NCBI GenBank assembly: GCA_964357045.1 | Contig: CAYHJV010000011.1 | Span: forward strand, 1 to 13,429 | Reading direction: 5' to 3' | From: Candidatus Woesearchaeota archaeon | Lineage (GTDB): Archaea; Nanobdellota; Nanobdellia; Pacearchaeales; GW2011-AR1 | Length of the DNA stretch: 13,429 bases | In this document: positions 2,874 through 13,429 of the stretch, in pieces | How positions within the stretch are numbered: position 1 is the first letter of the stretch | How the letters are laid out: every line of letters begins with the position of its first letter | Position numbers and translations under genes: made by a program | Notes under the pieces: model-generated | Seen by the model: only the letters and a program-made list of their open reading frames with translations | The model's database searches: none | What the model was told of the DNA's origin: nothing

Positions 2874-3680
2874 TTACCATGCAGTCCAACCACCATCAAA
2901 AACTAAATTAGCCCCGTTCATGTATTTGGAAGCATCCGAAAACAAAAATAATATCGCCCCAACATACTCGTCTTTTTCAGCCATTCTTCCCAACATTGTT
3001 TTGTTATTATAATTTTTATGGAACTCAGCATCCTGATTATTGAAAACACCTCCCGGGGTAAAAGTGTTTACTCTTACATTATTTTTATGCCAATATGACG
3101 CTAACCATCTGGTCATGTTAAGGACTCCTCCTTTTGTTGTTGCGTACGCAAGATTAGAATTAATCCCAGAATTTCCATAGATTCTCTGATCCGCACCAAC
3201 CACTCCATAAATTGAAGACACATTCACAATTACTCCTCCTCCATTTTCAGCCATCCACTCTCCAATTATTTTTACACACAAAAAGATGCCCGTTAAATTT
3301 ACTGCTAAAAATTTATCCCATTCATCAAGCGGAAAGTTACTCAATGGACCATGAACTAAAGGGGTTTGGGCTTGAGGATTATAACAAGCATTATTTAAAA
3401 GGCCATCAACTTTTTCGAACCTTTCTATTGTCTTTCTTAAAATATTCTTGACTTGATCCTCATTTGTTATGTCTGCTTTAATTAACAACACATTCTCATT
3501 CACCTGTTTTTCTAAATTATCTAACGCCTCCTCATTTATGTCTACTCCAACGATTTTAGATCCTAATTCACTTAAAGACTTGACGTAAACCTGTCCAAGC
3601 AATCCAGTAGCTCCAGTTATTATTATAACTTTATCTTTAATGGTTAATTTATCATTATAAAAATCATCTTTAAATGACAT
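2874..3680 (-). CDS. Classical short-chain dehydrogenase/reductase (SDR family oxidoreductase), PtmA-like by context
   Basis: The 268-aa ORF has the cofactor motif TGATGLLG, an NNAC motif (compare NNAG), the catalytic Ser in VNVSSIYG, and YATTK (YxxxK). It lies divergent to the cytidylyltransferase gene. Confidence 0.9.
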   Translation of the reverse strand: MSFKDDFYNDKLTIKDKVIIITGATGLLGQVYVKSLSELGSKIVGVDINEEALDNLEKQVNENVLLIKADITNEDQVKNILRKTIERFEKVDGLLNNACYNPQAQTPLVHGPLSNFPLDEWDKFLAVNLTGIFLCVKIIGEWMAENGGGVIVNVSSIYGVVGADQRIYGNSGINSNLAYATTKGGVLNMTRWLASYWHKNNVRVNTFTPGGVFNNQDAEFHKNYNNKTMLGRMAEKDEYVGAILFLFSDASKYMNGANLVFDGGWTAW

Positions 3681-3857
3681 ATCCTAGCTTACTTTAGACA
3701 TTTTATAAGTTTTTCTATTTTCAAGATGAAGTATCCTCTTGTCAATATTATATTAATATTACCTCTCAATTTTATACCAAAAGATTTATTTAGGGGGAAA
3801 ATTTTAACTGGTACATCCTCAAATAAAAACAAATGAATTTTTTGCGAAAAAACTAAA
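3681..3857. promoter_or_regulatory. Divergent intergenic region between the SDR gene (-) and the cytidylyltransferase operon (+)
   Basis: This is 177 bp of non-coding DNA between divergent starts. It contains a perfect inverted repeat, AATATTA-TAT-TAATATT, at 3744-3760. I cannot support a specific promoter motif. Confidence 0.3.
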
Positions 3858-4610
3858 ATGAAAATTCTGGCTTTAATTCCTGCACGTGGTGGAAGTAAGA
3901 GCATCCCTAAAAAGAATATTGCTCTTCTTGGAGAGTATCCTCTTTTAGCATATTCTATTGCTGCTGCGAAGCAATCAAAATTAATAAACAGAATCATCGT
4001 TACTACTGATGATTTAGAAATTGCAACCATTTCTAAAACTTTTCAGGCAGAAGCACCCTTTCTAAGACCTACAGGAATAGCAAAAGATTCTTCATTGGAC
4101 GCAGAATTTTTTATTCATGCTTTAGAGTGGTTAGAAAAAAATGAAGGATACATTCCCGATCTAATTGTAAATTTAAGACCAACAACCCCCTTAAGAGACT
4201 ATGTAGTCATTGATGATGCTATTATGAAAATCATAAATGATCGGAAAGCCACATCCTTAAGAAGTGCACATATTTTTGAGGATACTGGATACAAGTTATT
4301 TACAATAAAAAATAACTATTGCTACTTCTTTGGAAAAGAGGATTTTAAAAATGATGAATCTCATATCCTTCCAAGGCAAATATTGCCAGCAACCTATAAA
4401 CCAAATGGTTATGTTGATGTTATTATCCCAAAAAAATTTAAAGAGGATAGGGTATTATATGGAAAAAATATTTATCCATTTATAACTGAGAAGACAATAG
4501 ATATAGATTCTCCTAATGACCTAAATCAGGTCAGAAAGATTCTTAAAAGCCCTATAGCGAGTGCACTAATTCACAAAATAAAAGAATTAGAGAATTCAAA
4601 CATTAAATAA
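3858..4610 (+). CDS. Acylneuraminate cytidylyltransferase family protein (CMP-nonulosonic acid synthetase, NeuA/PtmB/LegF-like)
   Basis: The 250-aa ORF starts MKILALIPARGGSKSIPKKNI, the signature N-terminus of the CMP-NeuAc/CMP-Kdo synthetase-type cytidylyltransferases. Further on are IIVTTDD, FLRP...AKD and VNLRPTTPLR. It has the cytidylyltransferase domain only, with no C-terminal esterase or phosphatase extension. Confidence 0.9.
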   Translation: MKILALIPARGGSKSIPKKNIALLGEYPLLAYSIAAAKQSKLINRIIVTTDDLEIATISKTFQAEAPFLRPTGIAKDSSLDAEFFIHALEWLEKNEGYIPDLIVNLRPTTPLRDYVVIDDAIMKIINDRKATSLRSAHIFEDTGYKLFTIKNNYCYFFGKEDFKNDESHILPRQILPATYKPNGYVDVIIPKKFKEDRVLYGKNIYPFITEKTIDIDSPNDLNQVRKILKSPIASALIHKIKELENSNIK

Positions 4611-4619
4611 ATTTATATA

Positions 4620-5624
4620 ATGAAAATACTTTTTATTGGTCTAGGTTCTATTGGACAAAGGCATTTACAAAATCTAAGAAGAATAAGCAATGATAACGAA
4701 CTTTTTGCTTTGAGAAAATTTAACACAGACAAAATAATAAACAATTTTAAAACGTTCGACGTTAAAAGTTTATCTGAATTTTATGGAATTAAGACGGTTT
4801 ATTCACTAGAAGAAGCAAAAAAAATAAAGCCAGATGTTGTTTTTATCACTAATCCTACTTCACAACATATAAAAATTGCCTTAGATTTTGCAAGGGTTGG
4901 GAGCCATCTATTTATAGAAAAGCCATTAGGAAGTGACCTTAAATACCTAGACGAACTACAAAGAGTTATTTCTCAGAAAAAATTAATCACAATGGTCGGT
5001 TACCAAACAAGATTTAATCCAATTATAAAAAAGGTTAAAAAAATAATTCAAAAAAATCTAAAGAAAATTATTAGTGCTAGTTTCGAATGGAATAACTTTC
5101 TTCCTTTATACCACCAATATGAAAATTATTCAGAAAGTTATGCTGCAAAAGAATCGTTAGGTGGAGGGGTTACTTTAACTCTAATTCATGAAATCGACTT
5201 AATTTATAATCTGTTTGGACTACCAGAGAAAATTTTTGCATGGGGGGGAAAACTAAGCAACTTAAAAATAAACACTGAAGACACTATAATGTCCATCTTG
5301 AAATATAAATTAGTTGGAAGAAACATTTTTATCTATCTAAATTTATCTTTCGCTCAAACAAAAGAAACTAGAAAATTCAAGATACAATTCACCGATCTCA
5401 CTCTTTTTGTAGATCTCTTAGAAAATAGTTATGAGCTGTATGGTCAAAAAGGGAACCTAATAGAAAAGCATAAAGAGAATATATTGAGGAACGATTTATT
5501 TGTCAATGAATTAAGCTATTTTCTAGAATGCCTTAAAAAACAAAAAAATACTTTTATTGGAGTAGATGAAGGAAGAAAAAGTTTAGAAATTGCCTTAAAA
5601 ATTAAGAAATTAATAAGTGAATAA
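4620..5624 (+). CDS. Gfo/Idh/MocA family NAD(P)-dependent oxidoreductase (PtmF-like by context)
   Basis: The 334-aa ORF has the N-terminal Rossmann motif MKILFIGLGSIGQRHL and the family EKP motif in HLFIEKPL. It starts 9 nt after the cytidylyltransferase stop, which suggests co-transcription. Confidence 0.85.
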   Translation: MKILFIGLGSIGQRHLQNLRRISNDNELFALRKFNTDKIINNFKTFDVKSLSEFYGIKTVYSLEEAKKIKPDVVFITNPTSQHIKIALDFARVGSHLFIEKPLGSDLKYLDELQRVISQKKLITMVGYQTRFNPIIKKVKKIIQKNLKKIISASFEWNNFLPLYHQYENYSESYAAKESLGGGVTLTLIHEIDLIYNLFGLPEKIFAWGGKLSNLKINTEDTIMSILKYKLVGRNIFIYLNLSFAQTKETRKFKIQFTDLTLFVDLLENSYELYGQKGNLIEKHKENILRNDLFVNELSYFLECLKKQKNTFIGVDEGRKSLEIALKIKKLISE

Positions 5625-5827
5625 AATATATTTTATAAAAAAGAAAAACTATATATTCTACTTCCTCAAAATTTATAAACCTTTAATTTTTTTTATTGCA
5701 ACTTGCTAGATTTTAAAATGCCAAAGGATATTTGATTTAATTCCTACTTTGAGAATGTGACTTATTTAAATTATCTTAAAAAAATAGAATTTTTTAATAA
5801 AAAAGTGGAAAGAAATTGTGGTACAAG
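5625..5827 (+). promoter_or_regulatory. Unusually long (203 bp) same-strand intergenic spacer upstream of the NeuB-fusion gene; probable separate promoter
   Basis: The spacer is very AT-rich; I counted 9 G+C in 5761-5820. It holds a sigma70-like candidate, TTGAGA (5749-5754) - 17 nt - TATCTT (5772-5777), and a TATA-like TTTTTAATAAAAAA at about 5790-5804. Matches like these occur easily by chance in DNA this AT-rich. Confidence 0.25.
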
Positions 5828-8707
5828 ATGAAAGAAATGAAACAGGTTAAAATTGGTGAAAGACTCGTCGGAGAAGGATGCCCAACCTTTATCATTGCGG
5901 AGATTGGGGTAAATCACAATGGGCAGATAGACATTGTAAAAAAGTTGATTGATGTAGCTGTTCAAGGAGGGGCTGATGCGGTAAAGTTTCAAAGGAGAAG
6001 TCTAAATCAAATTTACCAGGAGGAGATTCTTAAAAACCCGAACCTAGGCGAGCAATCTTTCCAATATCTTCTTCCAATTTTAAAAGAATTCGAACTTTCT
6101 GAACAAGATTATCGCGAGATTGTCCGTATCTGTCGTGAGAAGAACATTATTTTTCTTTGTACCCCCTGGGATACTTTAAGTGTTGACTTTTTAGAGGACC
6201 TAGAAGTTCCGGCCTACAAAGTTGCCTCTGCAGATCTCACTAATTTTCCACTCATAGAGTATATAGCTTCCAAAAAAAAGCCAATGATCCTTTCAACAGG
6301 GATGTCTAGAGAGGATGAAATTAATAAGACTGTGAATTTTCTTAAAGAACGAAATGCAGAGTTCGTTCTTCTCCACTGCAACAGTACTTATCCAGCTCCT
6401 TTTAAGGAAATCCATCTAAGATATATGGAGAAATTACGAGAATTTGGTGTCCCTGTGGGCTATTCAGGGCATGAAAGAGGGATTGCCATCTCGACAGCTG
6501 CAGTGGCTCTTGGAGCATGTGTTATTGAAAGACATATTACTCTAGATCGAACTATGAGGGGTCCAGACCACGCAGCCAGCCTGGAACCACCGGGCTTCCA
6601 AAAAATGGTAAGAGACATCCGTCAGCTTGAATTGGCTTTAGGGGTTCCTAAGAAGAAAATTAATCAAGGAGAGGTTCTAAACCGAGAGCTTCTTGCCAAA
6701 AGTCTAGTAGCCAAAGTTTCCATTCCAAAAGGAACCATTATTTCAAAGGAGATGATAACTGCCAAGAGTCCGGGGAAAGGGATTTCTCCTCAGCGTCTTT
6801 ATGAATTAGCGGGGCGGACAGCCGCCAGAGATATTCAAATGGATGAGAATTTCATAGAAGAAGATTTTGGGAGTATTTCTTCCTCCAGCAACTTCGTCAA
6901 CAAACTAGATTCAACATACAAATGGGGGCTTAAGGTCCGTTTTAATGATTTCGACCAATTGGTTACTTACAATCCTAATTTCGTTGAGTTTCACTTTACT
7001 GATAAAGATATTGATGTTCCTTTTCAACCCAGCAGGAATTATGAGCAAGAGCTCTACGTTCACGCTCCCGAATACCAATTTCGTTCACTCATAGATCTTT
7101 GTTCCATGGATGAGAAAATTCGAGTGGCATCCGTTGAATTCATTCAGAGATCTATACAGAAAACGAAGGAAATAGCCCCTTATTTTAAAGGTAAACCACG
7201 GATGATTCTTCACGTAGGAGGAATGAGTTTAGAACCAATTTTAGATACCCGTCCGCTTCTTGAAAATCTTGAACGATCGCTTTCTGAACTTAGATTGGAT
7301 GGCGTGGAATTATTGCTTGAGAACTTGCCACCCAACCCTTGGTTTTTCGGAGGGCAATGGATCTCCAATGTTTTTATGGATGCCACTGAAATTCGCGATT
7401 TCTGTAGGAGGAAAGGATATCCAATATGTTTTGATTCATCACACGCAAAGCTTTATTGCAACTTCAAAGGCATTTCAATGGCAGAATATATTTCCACTGT
7501 CAAGCCTTTTACAAAACATCTTCATATTTCAGATGGGGCCGGCTTTGATGCAGAAGGACTACAAATAGATGAAGGAGAGATTGATTTCTCTGAAATTTTC
7601 CGTCTATTCCAAGGACAGGAGTATACATTGGTACCAGAAATTTGGCGGGGCCATCAAAACGGGGGCCAAGGCTTTTTCATTGCCTTGGAGCGTCTTTCAA
7701 AGTATTTTGTCTCGTTAATAGACAAGCACTCTCCTTATTCAAAAATAGATGAAATGAATAATAAAAAATGTTACCTCTGTGGATCGGAACACTTAAATGT
7801 AATTCGTGCTAAACTACGTTACGACATAAATAGAAATGTTCTTGAATGCCAAGAATGTAGCTTTGTTTTCTTAGAACCTCAATCAAAAAATCTTGAAGAG
7901 TATTATAGTGGGGATTATCGAAAAACATACTCTCCAGTTATTAATACTCCTCTTAGTAGCAAGGAAATATTTGATATATATCTTCCTCTCCAAAAGAGTA
8001 TTATCAATAGAATTAAATACTTACTGAATCCAGAATCAAGAGTCCTTGAGGTGGGCTGTTCTGCAGGGCACTTTTTGTATGCTATTCAGGACAAGGTTAA
8101 AGAATGCATAGGTGTTGAACTTAATAAACTAGATGCTAAATTTGTTAATGAGGAACTTAAAATAAAGGTATATAACTGTCAAATTGAAGAAACAGATTTA
8201 GAAGATAATTCATTTGATTTAATCTACGCAAATCAAGTTTTAGAGCATATAGGCAATCCAATAAATTTTTTAACAAAACTATCTAAGTATTTAAAACCAA
8301 CAGGAAAAATAGTTTTTCAAGTTCCAAATCTCCATGACCCCCTGTTAAGTTTATACCACTCAAAAGAATATTCTGATTTTTGGTTTAAAGAACCTCATAT
8401 TTCTTATTTTTCTCCTAAAACTCTTCTAAAAACATTTGAAAAAGCCAGCTTTTCTGGAAAAGTATTTCCTGTGCAGGATTATGGATTTATTAATCATTTA
8501 AACTGGATATTAAATGGAAAACCTCAAAAAAGTGTAACAGAAGGTGTCTCGGAACCTGTTCTACTAAATTCCAATTTGGTATCTGAGGAAGTTAAGAATG
8601 ATTTTAATGATTGGATAAAAAAAGTCAATGAAGAATACCTATCGCTTTTAAATAAACACAAATTTGGAGAATACCTTTTATTTATTGGAGAAAAAACTCT
8701 TTCATAA
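5828..8707 (+). CDS. Tri-domain fusion protein: NeuB-family nonulosonic acid synthase with SAF domain, xylose-isomerase-like TIM barrel, and Zn-ribbon class I SAM-dependent methyltransferase
   Basis: The track ORF is 5816-8707 with a TTG start; the first ATG is 5828, with another at 5837. The NeuB part (about 5849-6670) has FIIAEIGVNHNG, AVKFQ, LLHCNSTYPAP, GYSGHERG, IERHITLDR and GPDHAASLEP. The SAF part (about 6689-6868) has SLVAKVSIPKGTIISKEMITAKSPGKGISP. The TIM barrel (about 6917-7699) has LYVHAP, ILHVGG, LLLENL, CFDSSHA, HLHISD and VPEIW, the metal-ligand pattern of the AP_endonuc_2/xylose-isomerase-like fold. The methyltransferase (7754-8704) has CYLCGS...ECQECSF (CxxC...CxxC), the SAM motif I VLEVGCSAGHF, and DLIYANQVLEHI. 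Confidence 0.9.
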   Translation: MKEMKQVKIGERLVGEGCPTFIIAEIGVNHNGQIDIVKKLIDVAVQGGADAVKFQRRSLNQIYQEEILKNPNLGEQSFQYLLPILKEFELSEQDYREIVRICREKNIIFLCTPWDTLSVDFLEDLEVPAYKVASADLTNFPLIEYIASKKKPMILSTGMSREDEINKTVNFLKERNAEFVLLHCNSTYPAPFKEIHLRYMEKLREFGVPVGYSGHERGIAISTAAVALGACVIERHITLDRTMRGPDHAASLEPPGFQKMVRDIRQLELALGVPKKKINQGEVLNRELLAKSLVAKVSIPKGTIISKEMITAKSPGKGISPQRLYELAGRTAARDIQMDENFIEEDFGSISSSSNFVNKLDSTYKWGLKVRFNDFDQLVTYNPNFVEFHFTDKDIDVPFQPSRNYEQELYVHAPEYQFRSLIDLCSMDEKIRVASVEFIQRSIQKTKEIAPYFKGKPRMILHVGGMSLEPILDTRPLLENLERSLSELRLDGVELLLENLPPNPWFFGGQWISNVFMDATEIRDFCRRKGYPICFDSSHAKLYCNFKGISMAEYISTVKPFTKHLHISDGAGFDAEGLQIDEGEIDFSEIFRLFQGQEYTLVPEIWRGHQNGGQGFFIALERLSKYFVSLIDKHSPYSKIDEMNNKKCYLCGSEHLNVIRAKLRYDINRNVLECQECSFVFLEPQSKNLEEYYSGDYRKTYSPVINTPLSSKEIFDIYLPLQKSIINRIKYLLNPESRVLEVGCSAGHFLYAIQDKVKECIGVELNKLDAKFVNEELKIKVYNCQIEETDLEDNSFDLIYANQVLEHIGNPINFLTKLSKYLKPTGKIVFQVPNLHDPLLSLYHSKEYSDFWFKEPHISYFSPKTLLKTFEKASFSGKVFPVQDYGFINHLNWILNGKPQKSVTEGVSEPVLLNSNLVSEEVKNDFNDWIKKVNEEYLSLLNKHKFGEYLLFIGEKTLS

Positions 8708-8789
8708 TATTTGCTTATGCGTGAAAAAGATTTGTTGGATTTAGACACGGAAGATGATTTAAAGATTATATAAGCTTTGATGAAAAAAG

Positions 8790-9727
8790 TCAATAGTCTT
8801 TAGAATAAAGCCCACTCGGTGTTTTACCTATTAGCGCATGCCCTATAGCCGTAAAGTAAGGATTAATTAACTTTTTTTGTCTCCATTTTGTCAACCTAAA
8901 AATTGCAAGTGCCGTAGACTCTAATAAAAGGACAAAAAGAAAAAAAGCAAAGTTTTTATTTTTTCTAACAGTTAGTAGCCAATTTCTTATGTTATAATAA
9001 GTTGATATTTCATTTTCTTTTTTGTTCTTCTCTAGGGAAGCTGAAACCTTATGCCAAACTTTAGATTCCGGGACAAAAAGACACCCATATCCTCTATTTG
9101 TCATTCTTAGACACCACTCTGTAAACTCATGAATTACAAAGAACCTTTCATCAAATAAACCATATCTTTTCAAAACATCCGCTCTCATCATAAGGACACA
9201 ATCGCAAGCATCAACATAGCTTTCTTTTAAATTTCCTGTATCTATCTCTCCTTGATTTAATGGCTTAAAGCTTTTAATTGAATATTTACAGCCGGCACAC
9301 CATATTTTATTTTTTGGTTTCATATAGTAAATAATAGGAGTTGACACTGCTACTTTCTGATTTTTTTCCATCGACTCAACCAAAATATTCAAGAAATTTT
9401 TATCAACAACCATATCATTATTCAAAGTTAAAATATACTTGCTGTTCCACCTCAACCCCTCTCTTATTCCAACGTTAGTTCCTTCTGCCAATCCCAATTT
9501 TTTTTATTCTCTATCAAGGTGGCCATTTTGGAGTATTTTCTTCTAAATTCCTTTTGAGTGCCGTCACTGGATCCATTGTCTACGACAATTATGTCATAGT
9601 TTCTATAATTTATTTCTTTCAAAGAATCTAATAAGTCAAAAGTATGCTTCTTGCCATTCCAATTAACAAAAACAATAGAAACTCTTGGTTGATTACTATT
9701 TTTTTTTGTTTCAATTTTTTGTTTCAT
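8790..9727 (-). pseudogene. GT2-family glycosyltransferase split into two ORFs by a 1-nt frameshift at an A8 tract (T8 on the + strand, 9498-9505)
   Basis: ORF 9464-9727 encodes the GT2 N-terminus (VSIVFVNWNGKKHTFDLLDSLKEINYRNYDIIVVDNGSSDGT ... ATLIENKKN). ORF 8790-9497 continues in the -1 frame with LGLAEGTNVGIREGL...LTLNNDMVV. Together they rebuild the canonical N-x-G-x-A-x-G-x-N and DxD-region layout of one ~312-aa enzyme. The M that opens the downstream track ORF is really an internal TTG Leu codon. Confidence 0.75.
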
Positions 9728-10526: not shown

Positions 10527-11747
10527 TTATTTTAACAATCGGTTGTATGTATTTAATAACCTATTGAGATCATCTTTCCAATGAAACCTCATTTTATAAC
10601 TATTTTTACCCATTTTTTTTCTTAACTTTTCATTTTTTAATATCTTTATAATACCTTCTGCAATTGCCTTGGGATCGTTTTTTACGATAAATCCATTTTT
10701 TTTGTTTTTAACAAACCTTCTCATTATTTCTAAATCTGTTGCTACTATGGGTAAACCAGCCGCTAAATACTCATATAGTTTGTCAGGATCTGCAGTTTCT
10801 GTGAGAAGAGTTTTTTGATGACATATTATTCCTAAATCAGCAGAACACACAAATTTAGCATATTTTTCTTCGTTCATCCACTCGCTAACTAAAATAACAT
10901 TATCGCTGATTTTGTTAATACTAATTTTATCTAACAATTTTTTATAATAAATTTTATCTTTTATTTCCTCTGCTATCTTTATAACAAATAAAGCTTTTGG
11001 AATTTTTTTTACAACTAAAGAAATTGAATCAATTAATAGATCTACTCCGAAGTATGGAACAATACTCCCCGTAAATAGAACTATTTTCTTATTTTCCCAG
11101 CCAAACTTTTTCTTATTTTTTCTTTTTGGATTAAAATATTTATTGTTTGCGGCAGCCGCAGAATTAGTTACTATTGTAAAATATCCTTCTTTTAATTTAT
11201 AGCCTTTCTTGAGGAATTCTTTCTGAGGCTCGCTCACTACAACTATATGATCTATATGTTTAAAACAAAATCTCTCAAATACATGGAAAAGTTTTATTTT
11301 CATCTTTCTCATAAAATTAACAGAATTTTTATCTAAGATTGTAGATTCTCCGCTCCAGGGGTCATGATAATCTAAAATTATTTTTGCCTTAATACCCATA
11401 AATTTAGATATATAAGCGGGAATAAGAGAAGAGTGTCTGTGGCAATGGATTAAATCTATTTTATTTTCTTTATCTATTTTTTTTAGTTTCCTTGCTCCAA
11501 AAACTCCAAAAATTACTATATCTAAAATAGTTAGATTATTAGAGGGTTTGTCTGTAAGAAATCTTTTTTTTTTAATTATTACAGTGTTAAAATTTTCATT
11601 ATACTCTTTTTTTATTTTATTTTTTTTAAATAACATCCTATAAACAGTAAATTTTTTTTCAGATAAATCCCTACACATTTGATAAATTCTTGGAGGTTCT
11701 TGAAAGTCTCGCGCAAACATCTGTACAATTACTTTTTTGTTATTCAT
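10527..11747 (-). CDS. GT4-family (GT-B, Glycos_transf_1) glycosyltransferase
   Basis: The 406-aa ORF has a C-terminal donor-binding region, VLFTGSIVPYFGVDLL...ADLGIICHQ...ETADPDKLYEYLAAGLPIVATD...NGFIV, which is the E-x7-E-type motif region. It contains an in-frame A10 tract at 11564-11573. Confidence 0.85.
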   Translation of the reverse strand: MNNKKVIVQMFARDFQEPPRIYQMCRDLSEKKFTVYRMLFKKNKIKKEYNENFNTVIIKKKRFLTDKPSNNLTILDIVIFGVFGARKLKKIDKENKIDLIHCHRHSSLIPAYISKFMGIKAKIILDYHDPWSGESTILDKNSVNFMRKMKIKLFHVFERFCFKHIDHIVVVSEPQKEFLKKGYKLKEGYFTIVTNSAAAANNKYFNPKRKNKKKFGWENKKIVLFTGSIVPYFGVDLLIDSISLVVKKIPKALFVIKIAEEIKDKIYYKKLLDKISINKISDNVILVSEWMNEEKYAKFVCSADLGIICHQKTLLTETADPDKLYEYLAAGLPIVATDLEIMRRFVKNKKNGFIVKNDPKAIAEGIIKILKNEKLRKKMGKNSYKMRFHWKDDLNRLLNTYNRLLK

Positions 11748-12870: not shown

Positions 12871-13000
12871 ATTGACGAAATAAGTGTACGACTTATAAAT
12901 ATTATGTACTATTATTATAATACCGATGCAATGTAGATAAATATATATAACCCCAATAAAATAAAAATGAATGCCAAACTATGATAAGAAAAGGTACGTT
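12871..13000. promoter_or_regulatory. Divergent intergenic region between the GT operon (-) and the acetyltransferase gene (+)
   Basis: This is about 100-130 bp of AT-rich non-coding DNA between divergent starts. I cannot support a specific motif. An in-frame alternative ATG for the acetyltransferase lies at 12971. Confidence 0.3.
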
Positions 13001-13429
13001 ATGAGTATTAAGATTGGTTTTTTCAGAAAATTTGTGAACAGATTTCTGTATGTTCTAGGATATTTTGGACCTGGAAATAGTTTAAGAGTTTTTGCAAACA
13101 GAGCCCGTTGAGTAAAGATAGGAAAAAATGTGTTCATAGATGCTTTCGTTCATATAGATACCGCAGTTCCCCATTTAGTAAAAATAGAAGATAATGTAAA
13201 ACTTTCCATTGGTGTAAAAATATTTGCACATAACTCAGTGTTTCAAGATATAAATTCTCAAGATCCAATAATAATCTCTCCAGTTTTAATAAAAAAAAGG
13301 GCTCAGCTTGCCCCCAATGTAATTGTCTTAGAAGGCGTAACCATTGGGGAAAACTCCATTATCGGTACTTCTGCAGTAGTTAATCACGATATACCAAATG
13401 GAATGATAGCGGTTGGGATTCCTGCAAAA
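13001..13429 (+). CDS. Left-handed beta-helix (hexapeptide-repeat) sugar O-acetyltransferase, WcaF/WbbJ-like. The frame is interrupted by an in-frame TGA at 13109-13111 (possible pseudogene), and the 3' end lies beyond the window
   Basis: Not in the ORF track; I translated it by hand. The sequence reads MSIKIGFFRKFVNRFLYVLGYFGPGNSLRVFANRAR-TGA-VKIGKNVFIDAFVHIDTAVPHLVKIEDNVKLSIGVKIFAHNSVFQ...APNVIVLEGVTIGENSIIGTSAVVNHDIPNGMIAVGIPAK, all in one frame. The homologue pattern (LRLFGAKIGKNVVI...) spans the stop. If the TGA is a real stop, the next usable in-frame start is GTG at 13130. Confidence 0.65.

Follow-up and report, generated by a model that had tools for sequence, protein, structure and literature searches.

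How does one open reading frame (ORF) in an archaeal genome come to encode parts of three different enzymes, and should its product be thought of as a new machine or as an accident of gene arrangement? The question is raised by a contig from a Candidatus Woesearchaeota archaeon (CAYHJV010000011.1 of assembly GCA_964357045.1), of which the stretch analysed, called the window here, comprises the first 13,429 nucleotides. At positions 5828-8707 on the forward strand (the strand meant throughout, unless the reverse strand is named) it holds a single open frame of 959 codons from an ATG at 5828, in which a nonulosonic acid (NulO) synthase of the NeuB type with its SAF domain, a xylose-isomerase-like TIM barrel and a zinc-ribbon methyltransferase follow one another. 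The original prediction saw in this frame three normally independent enzymes, fused for the channelled synthesis of a modified NulO. Our own answer is more prosaic, and we would give it a probability of about 0.6: the ORF represents two neighbouring genes of a legionaminic-acid-type NulO cluster that were merged into one frame in a groundwater population. As an architecture, the window ORF joins adjacent pathway genes in a single instance and does not found a new enzyme class.

The frame itself is plain to see, since both the ORF list and the translation give 959 codons without a stop, just as had been claimed; the leftmost possible start is a TTG at 5816, giving 963 residues (5816-8707), and a second in-frame ATG at 5837 fits the N-termini of homologues slightly better. 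A Pfam scan of the translation recovered four domains, each of which exceeds its gathering score: the phosphoenolpyruvate (PEP)-condensing TIM-barrel domain of NeuB (PF03102, residues 40-274, 5945-6649, E 2e-87, 293 bits against a cut-off of 22.1), the antifreeze-like SAF domain (PF08666, residues 291-340, 6698-6847, 37.8 bits against 21), AP_endonuc_2 (PF01261, residues 408-611, 58.2 bits against 31.1) within the second barrel at 6869-7708, and Methyltransf_23 (residues 728-875, 82.5 bits against 27). The zinc domain Methyltransf_13 and the C-terminal domain Methyltransf_14 were not detected in the ORF by Pfam at E <= 0.01. With confident predicted models added to these scores, the three domain assignments of the original prediction hold, and every motif quoted for the three parts is present in the translation, namely IAEIGVNHNG, KFQ, HCNSTYP, ERHITLD and DHAASLEP in the NeuB part, VHAP, LHVGG, LLEN, DSSHA, HLHISD and PEIW in the TIM barrel, and MNNKKCYLCGS (at an in-frame ATG, 7754), CQEC and VLEVGCSAG in the methyltransferase. 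The three-module content of the ORF is far beyond chance. The two junctions are of quite different character: the one between SAF and TIM barrel (about 6850-6930) is unbroken in all homologues and so is not an artefact, whereas the one between TIM barrel and methyltransferase (7709-7753) is continuous in this contig alone.

Only the second junction is in fact unusual, because NeuB-SAF-TIM turns out to be a very common, annotated two-domain protein, so that the description of three normally independent enzymes cannot stand. In a collection of 5.8 billion clusters, the best 119 non-self matches are all proteins of 616-649 residues with NeuB, SAF and AP_endonuc_2 and without a methyltransferase; these relatives are colinear with residues 1-627 of the window ORF, at 55-73% identity, and keep the same invariant residues. 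That the two-part family is widespread is borne out by HMMER, run exhaustively against 1.84 billion representatives, and a pattern scan of GTDB species genomes (one genome per species) finds at least 596 relatives encoded. Among the matches listed most carriers are Chloroflexota, the others including Nitrospirota, Planctomycetota, Elusimicrobia, Patescibacteria (Doudnabacteria and Saccharibacteria), Woesearchaeota (DPANN archaea) and haloarchaea, and Thalassobacillus devorans and Catenovulum sediminis are cultured carriers. NCBI annotates the family as 'N-acetylneuraminate synthase family protein' and JGI as 'sialic acid synthase SpsE/sugar phosphate isomerase/epimerase'. What does appear to be unique is the three-part form, which had not been recognised as a characterised enzyme when it was first described: no protein with all three modules occurs among the best 150 HMMER matches of the 959-residue query, and no other such protein among the best 119 NeuB-TIM or the best 120 methyltransferase matches of the cluster collection. 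The original sense of novelty fails for the NeuB-SAF-TIM portion, which is already widespread and annotated.

The genomic setting of the two-domain family is equally consistent. Its closest member to the window (P0002) lies beside a Gfo/Idh/MocA oxidoreductase (GFO), an SDR and a CTP_transf_3 gene, as in the window, where all three are found within 3 kb upstream of the ORF. Across 80 NeuB-TIM loci the neighbours include CTP_transf_3 in 65, SDR in 54 and GFO in 40, typically in the order GFO-SDR-CTP-NeuB/TIM, and none of these 80 loci has a methyltransferase fused. The names PtmF, PtmA and LegF, for the GFO, SDR and CTP_transf_3 types of legionaminic acid loci, are taken from PMC4481668. Members of the family end 22-49 residues after the EIW motif, with a modal tail of 22-25, and in this they differ from the window ORF, which passes the expected end by a further 335 codons and runs into the methyltransferase.

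The methyltransferase, for its part, is a class I S-adenosylmethionine (SAM) enzyme of 317 residues (7754-8707, by Pfam, homology and model), in which a Cys4 zinc ribbon (C6, C9, C32 and C35 of the module, 7769-7858; invariant in 24 family members) precedes the SAM-binding motif I, VLEVGCSAG, at 8042-8068, with L-x-x-G-C-S-x-G-H conserved in the family. All of its best 120 relatives are free-standing proteins of 182-342 residues. The stand-alone P0121 and P0122, of about 315 residues, are 76% and 73% identical to the module over all 317 residues, begin with the same M-N-x-x-K-C-Y-L-C-G-S and lie in the same place just downstream of NeuB; unlike the window module they are separate genes, each preceded by a stop codon and a spacer of 11-30 nucleotides. 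Of the methyltransferase loci that measure 5 kb or more, 45 of 49 contain NeuB, TIM or CTP_transf_3, the methyltransferase follows directly after NeuB in eight loci and, as a separate gene, directly after NeuB-TIM in three (L111, L115 and L148), and fusion to NeuB-TIM is seen in none of 80 methyltransferase loci.

How, then, were the two genes joined? Similarity to P0002 stops at 7708, at the end of a run of four T residues (7705-7708), and from there to the methyltransferase ATG runs a 15-codon linker (7709-7753, VSLIDKHSPYSKIDE) with a guanine plus cytosine (GC) fraction of 0.31 and no homologue in either parent family. Two to three codons past the conserved ...LSKY, out of frame, stands a tandem stop, TAATAG (7716-7721, frame +1), which is likely to be the ancestral end of the NeuB-SAF-TIM gene. 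Removing one T from the run brings this stop into use: the sequence then reads ...ALERLSKYLSR followed by the double stop, the corrected tail (RGHQNGGQGFFIALERLSKYLSR) extends 23 residues after EIW, inside the modal range, and the corrected protein ends in ...EIWRGHQNGGQGFFIALERLSKYLSR, the last five residues being those of P0005 (...KYLSR) and resembling those of P0002 (...KYLSH). By hand count, the nine nucleotides after TAT match the contig that encodes P0002 (L001) at five of nine positions when corrected and at one of nine as assembled. As assembled, the frame reaches the methyltransferase ATG at 7754 in phase. We take the linker to be read-through of the former gene end and the intergenic spacer, and conclude that the fusion probably goes back to the insertion of one base, through which the frame came to miss the stop codons at the end of the gene. 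The earlier suggestion of a join through loss of a stop codon was right in this somewhat modified sense of a stop put out of frame. A scan of 5500-9000 for promoters and terminators scored no better than shuffled sequence and gave no signal at the junction.

A comparison with the true syntenic relative of the window, a locus of 31% GC (L003), points to what stood here before. Its order is an Epimerase_2-like gene, CTP_transf_3, GFO, a plain NeuB of 327 residues, a stop and a stand-alone methyltransferase, with a GT2 glycosyltransferase, a deacetylase and a GT1 further on, and its genes are 60-75% identical to the flanking genes of the window. A second locus (L004) likewise has a plain NeuB, a stop and a methyltransferase, the latter starting with MNKGKCYLCGS after a 30-nucleotide spacer, and this equivalent start shows the ATG at 7754 to be the place where a once separate gene began, as the original prediction had guessed. 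The NeuB part of the window is only 42-44% identical to the NeuB proteins of these two loci (42% to that of L003); its NeuB and TIM parts each share 73% identity with P0002, encoded on a contig of 51% GC, and GC at third codon positions is 0.35 in NeuB-TIM versus about 0.20-0.29 in the methyltransferase and the flanking genes. A higher-GC NeuB-SAF-TIM gene has, to judge from these comparisons, taken the place of the native plain NeuB by xenologous displacement. A chimeric assembly on the 5' side was considered and rejected, since an independent assembly from Hainich groundwater (L005; well H41, 0.1 um fraction, replicate 3) is 100% identical over the native spacer and the first 393 nucleotides of the gene, across the boundary into NeuB. 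The methyltransferase downstream of NeuB-TIM in the contig of P0002 was rejected as an orthologue of the window module, being 22% identical and of another subfamily. Set beside L003 (9006-13699), the window also lacks two genes, one for a radical-SAM/SPASM protein and one for a HAD (Hydrolase_3) phosphatase, both of which it has lost, and its SDR gene has moved and points the other way. In the loci at large, genes of the HAD type go with short NeuB paralogues that lack SAF, and not with NeuB-SAF-TIM; the idea that the barrel stands in for the lost phosphatase was dropped, as no substitution is required.

Is the extra T at 7705-7708 a mutation of the organism or an error of the contig? We lean towards a real mutation, and hold it to be somewhat the better supported of the two, because another frame break in the same window recurs in independent data. 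The GT2 glycosyltransferase at 8790-9727 on the reverse strand, a single gene of 305 residues in L003, is broken at an A8 run (near 9497-9505) into overlapping ORFs of 87 and 235 residues, and two independent assemblies from Hainich (L006 and L007) show the 87-residue fragment as well, so that this break is likely to be a real pseudogene or a slippage-prone tract.

The strongest competitor is an assembly or sequencing indel, which we consider possible, if rather unlikely: the organism would then have two genes, NeuB-SAF-TIM ending in ...LSKYLSR at the TAATAG of 7716-7721 and a methyltransferase of 317 residues from the ATG at 7754, and the 959-codon frame would exist in the deposited contig only. 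It gains from the fact that a one-base homopolymer correction gives a family-typical C-terminus and a double stop, and from the separate genes of all close relatives. Several further points weigh against a merged gene in the organism or against the details of our account of it. In none of the databases searched, be it the 5.8 billion clusters or the 1.84 billion representatives, does the three-part architecture have a second example; the sister assemblies of the same population have a coverage of only 2-3x; and nothing independent over 7700-7760, be it a contig, a set of reads, a gene product or a fragment of a protein, turned up in the collections searched. Exact look-ups of the 959-residue protein, the 317-residue methyltransferase and the downstream GT2 fragment gave no match, nor did a homology search with 168 residues from across the junction bring up any near-identical fragment. 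Where the indel lies, moreover, is read from a short stretch, and KYF, as the sequence now reads, is seen elsewhere in the family too (P0014 has the ending ...SKYFL), while it is only fold and neighbourhood that suggest the functions of the TIM barrel and the methyltransferase, the equivalog-level scores in NCBIfam all being below their cut-offs. An error in the contig is made less probable by the shortness of the T4 run, consensus indels in Illumina assemblies being rare in runs as short as this, by the recurrent GT2 frameshift, which implies that the indels of this contig are not obviously noise, and by the exact reproduction of the 5' boundary of the acquired gene in L005. That a methyltransferase and a NeuB can be viable in one chain follows from the existence of an independent fusion, P0357 (649 residues, GCA_034680565.1; L171, 6001-7950), in which a zinc-ribbon Methyltransf_23 module is joined to NeuB and SAF in a NulO cluster; relative to the window the order is reversed, with the methyltransferase N-terminal and 27% identical (E 7e-17), and the TIM barrel is absent.

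What might the modules do? The NeuB part aligns over residues 4-338 to residues 4-339 of Neisseria meningitidis NeuB (1xuu; E 4e-53), and its H215, E216 and H236 are invariant in a family alignment of 25 sequences; His215 and His236 we take to be the metal-ligand histidines of the meningococcal structure. It has the NeuB barrel plus SAF of the stand-alone NulO synthases, namely meningococcal NeuB, PseI of C. jejuni (8h2c), SpsE of B. subtilis (1vli) and LegI, and aligns end to end with NeuB, PseI and SpsE (E 4e-53 to 4e-47), the difference being that these four synthases have neither a TIM-barrel nor a methyltransferase extension. Its scores fall short of the cut-offs of both equivalog models that stand for a specific product (Neu5Ac or Pse), NeuB_NnaB (TIGR03569, 365.8 against 399.65) and PseI (TIGR03586, 257.6 against 340.25), and so do not point to one particular sugar.

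The TIM barrel, with its invariant His, Glu and Asp residues, gave an AlphaFold model (from the family alignment) with a pLDDT of 89.8, the best fold match of which in the PDB is MJ1311 of Methanocaldococcus jannaschii (3wqo, D-tagatose 3-epimerase-like; TM 0.68/0.72), also the sole PDB sequence match of the module (E 1.9e-8). Both are barrels rich in His, Glu and Asp; MJ1311, however, is free-standing and just 21% identical, and a literature search on its function found nothing relevant. After it come endonuclease IV, ketose 3-epimerases, UlaE and xylose isomerases, the matches to ketose 3-epimerases, endonuclease IV and xylose isomerases having TM scores of 0.55-0.69 at 11-21% identity, and the only NCBIfam match is a fructoselysine 3-epimerase model at 19-22 bits, against a cut-off of 305. 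Judged by its fold and neighbourhood, the barrel most likely isomerises or epimerises the sugar substrate or the product.

For the methyltransferase (model pLDDT 91.1) the top Foldseek matches, at E about 1e-13, are the sugar C-3 methyltransferases MtmC, KijD1 and TcaB9, which, like the window module, have a Cys4 ribbon ahead of a Rossmann SAM domain; the resemblance is modest (TMq about 0.5, identity 17-20%), and the C-terminal domain of these enzymes, of about 405 residues to the module's 317, is absent from the window. The model for the PtmH or Pse-associated methylase (TIGR03587) is matched at 21.5-23.3 bits only, under its cut-off of 112.05. We think, from its fold and neighbourhood, that the most likely substrate of the module is the NulO or the nucleotide-hexose that precedes it in the pathway.

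Could the fusion nevertheless be a selected trifunctional enzyme, which channels an isomerised or epimerised and methylated NulO through three joined active sites? We find this improbable, despite some attractive features. The three activities are linked by gene neighbourhood, the modules look intact and keep their invariant residues, and NeuB is often fused to other domains, whether CBS, CTP_transf_3, GT29, a PglD-type acetyltransferase or, in reverse order, a zinc-ribbon methyltransferase. Set against these are the lack of a second example and of a conserved linker, a linker that instead derives from a former stop and spacer, and the fact that the join needs just one neutral base change, for which the chance of a stop-free, in-frame landing is roughly 0.1 (an estimate from base composition). 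The broken glycosyltransferase in the same window also means that selection on the cluster may be relaxed. Of the original idea of channelled synthesis we would thus keep one half: the functional link between the modules is real, as the conserved neighbourhood and the opposite-order fusion P0357 indicate, and the channelling itself would depend on a singleton, possibly neutral or artefactual join in place of a conserved architecture. A related and similarly doubtful proposal is that the 959-residue protein is real and actively trifunctional, the barrel performing an undescribed isomerisation or epimerisation common to the family of about 630 residues and the methyltransferase giving a methylated, legionaminic-acid-like surface sugar in an ultra-small groundwater organism. 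Least probable of all is that a glycan locus is eroding in a reduced genome, the frame change being part of this decay and the fused product non-functional or irrelevant, which would suit the GT2 gene split at its A8 run and intact in L003, the missing radical-SAM/SPASM and HAD genes and the inverted SDR, but which sits badly with a 959-codon frame free of internal stops, the retention of all catalytic-type invariant residues in the three modules and the intactness of the remaining eight window genes.

In the account that we prefer, of two pathway genes merged into one frame, the lineage's own plain NeuB would have been replaced by the higher-GC NeuB-SAF-TIM gene, after which an extra T at 7705-7708 would have shifted the frame past the TAATAG stop, across 11 stop-free spacer codons and into the methyltransferase at its ATG; the extra base would be a real, recent and lineage-specific mutation. 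The fusion is probably tolerated, with the modules acting as they do when separate, and would not be a new machine shaped by selection. In the pathway we envisage, the PtmF- and PtmA-like enzymes may help to supply a hexosamine precursor, and the NeuB module would condense PEP with a six-carbon aldose to give a nine-carbon 2-keto-3-deoxy acid. The barrel, of a metal-dependent isomerase or epimerase type, might prepare that aldose or tailor the product; the methyltransferase would act on the NulO or on a nucleoside diphosphate-hexose intermediate; the CTP_transf_3 enzyme would make the cytidine monophosphate (CMP)-sugar, and the protein encoded at 966-2852, together with the glycosyltransferases, could install it.

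Taken alone, the three-part ORF is a minor matter, of use mainly as Rosetta-stone support for the view that this methyltransferase family acts with NeuB in NulO synthesis. More interesting, we believe, is the question of what the barrel does in the two-domain family, very common as that family is; an answer would extend NulO biosynthesis by a step or by a new sugar, and cultured hosts exist. Literature searches found no biochemical characterisation of a fusion of NeuB with a xylose-isomerase-like domain, and nothing relevant on NulO in the Patescibacteria or candidate phyla radiation.

The family has further variants. In one locus (L169, 1823-3671) a short NeuB of 294 residues stands directly before a stand-alone AP_endonuc_2 protein of 277 residues, and this split pair shares its locus with a NeuB-SAF-TIM gene and a SIS_2 isomerase gene. 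Many NeuB-SAF-TIM proteins carry an extra domain of about 110-130 residues, N-terminal in L083, L085 and P0259 and C-terminal in L055, L066 and L068; the extension of P0259 is a CBS domain by Pfam, and those seen in the loci are CBS-like by eye only. This CBS+NeuB+SAF+TIM form is widespread, at about 740-770 residues, and members of that length with an N-terminal offset of about 110-135 residues account for a good part of the 150 best representatives in the HMMER search. Other fusions met with were NeuBx2+SAF+CTP_transf_3 (P0356, 963 residues), NeuB+SAF with a GT29 sialyltransferase-like domain (P0362) and PglD_N/Hexapep acetyltransferase+NeuB+SAF (P0364); NeuB is, to go by such architectures, a frequent fusion partner.

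As for the rest of the window, scans of its whole length for tRNA genes and Rfam families gave no match, and positions 1-965 and 12871-13429 hold no ORF of at least 60 residues. A 113-residue ORF at 3689-4030 on the reverse strand has no Pfam match and runs into the beginning of the CTP_transf_3 gene, which is read from the opposite strand; it is probably no gene. A GT4/GT1 glycosyltransferase at 10527-11747 (reverse strand) has no counterpart in the otherwise syntenic L003. Directly upstream of the fused frame lies the GFO gene (4620-5624), PtmF-like and a conserved member of the cassette, preceded by the CTP_transf_3 gene (3858-4610) for a LegF/PseF-like CMP-sugar synthetase, the best NCBIfam match of which is PseF (124.6 bits, under the cut-off of 205.7), and by the PtmA-like SDR oxidoreductase gene on the reverse strand (2874-3680), for which FlagModPtmA is the fourth-best NCBIfam match at 153 bits, under its cut-off of 350. 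The gene at 966-2852 encodes a protein of 628 residues with an Epimerase_2-like C-terminal half, its matches to TIGR04396 surf_polysacc, the BFO_1060 family and Epimerase_2 all being weak and below cut-off; it is 74% identical to its L003 counterpart and, on its sequence, a candidate NulO transferase.

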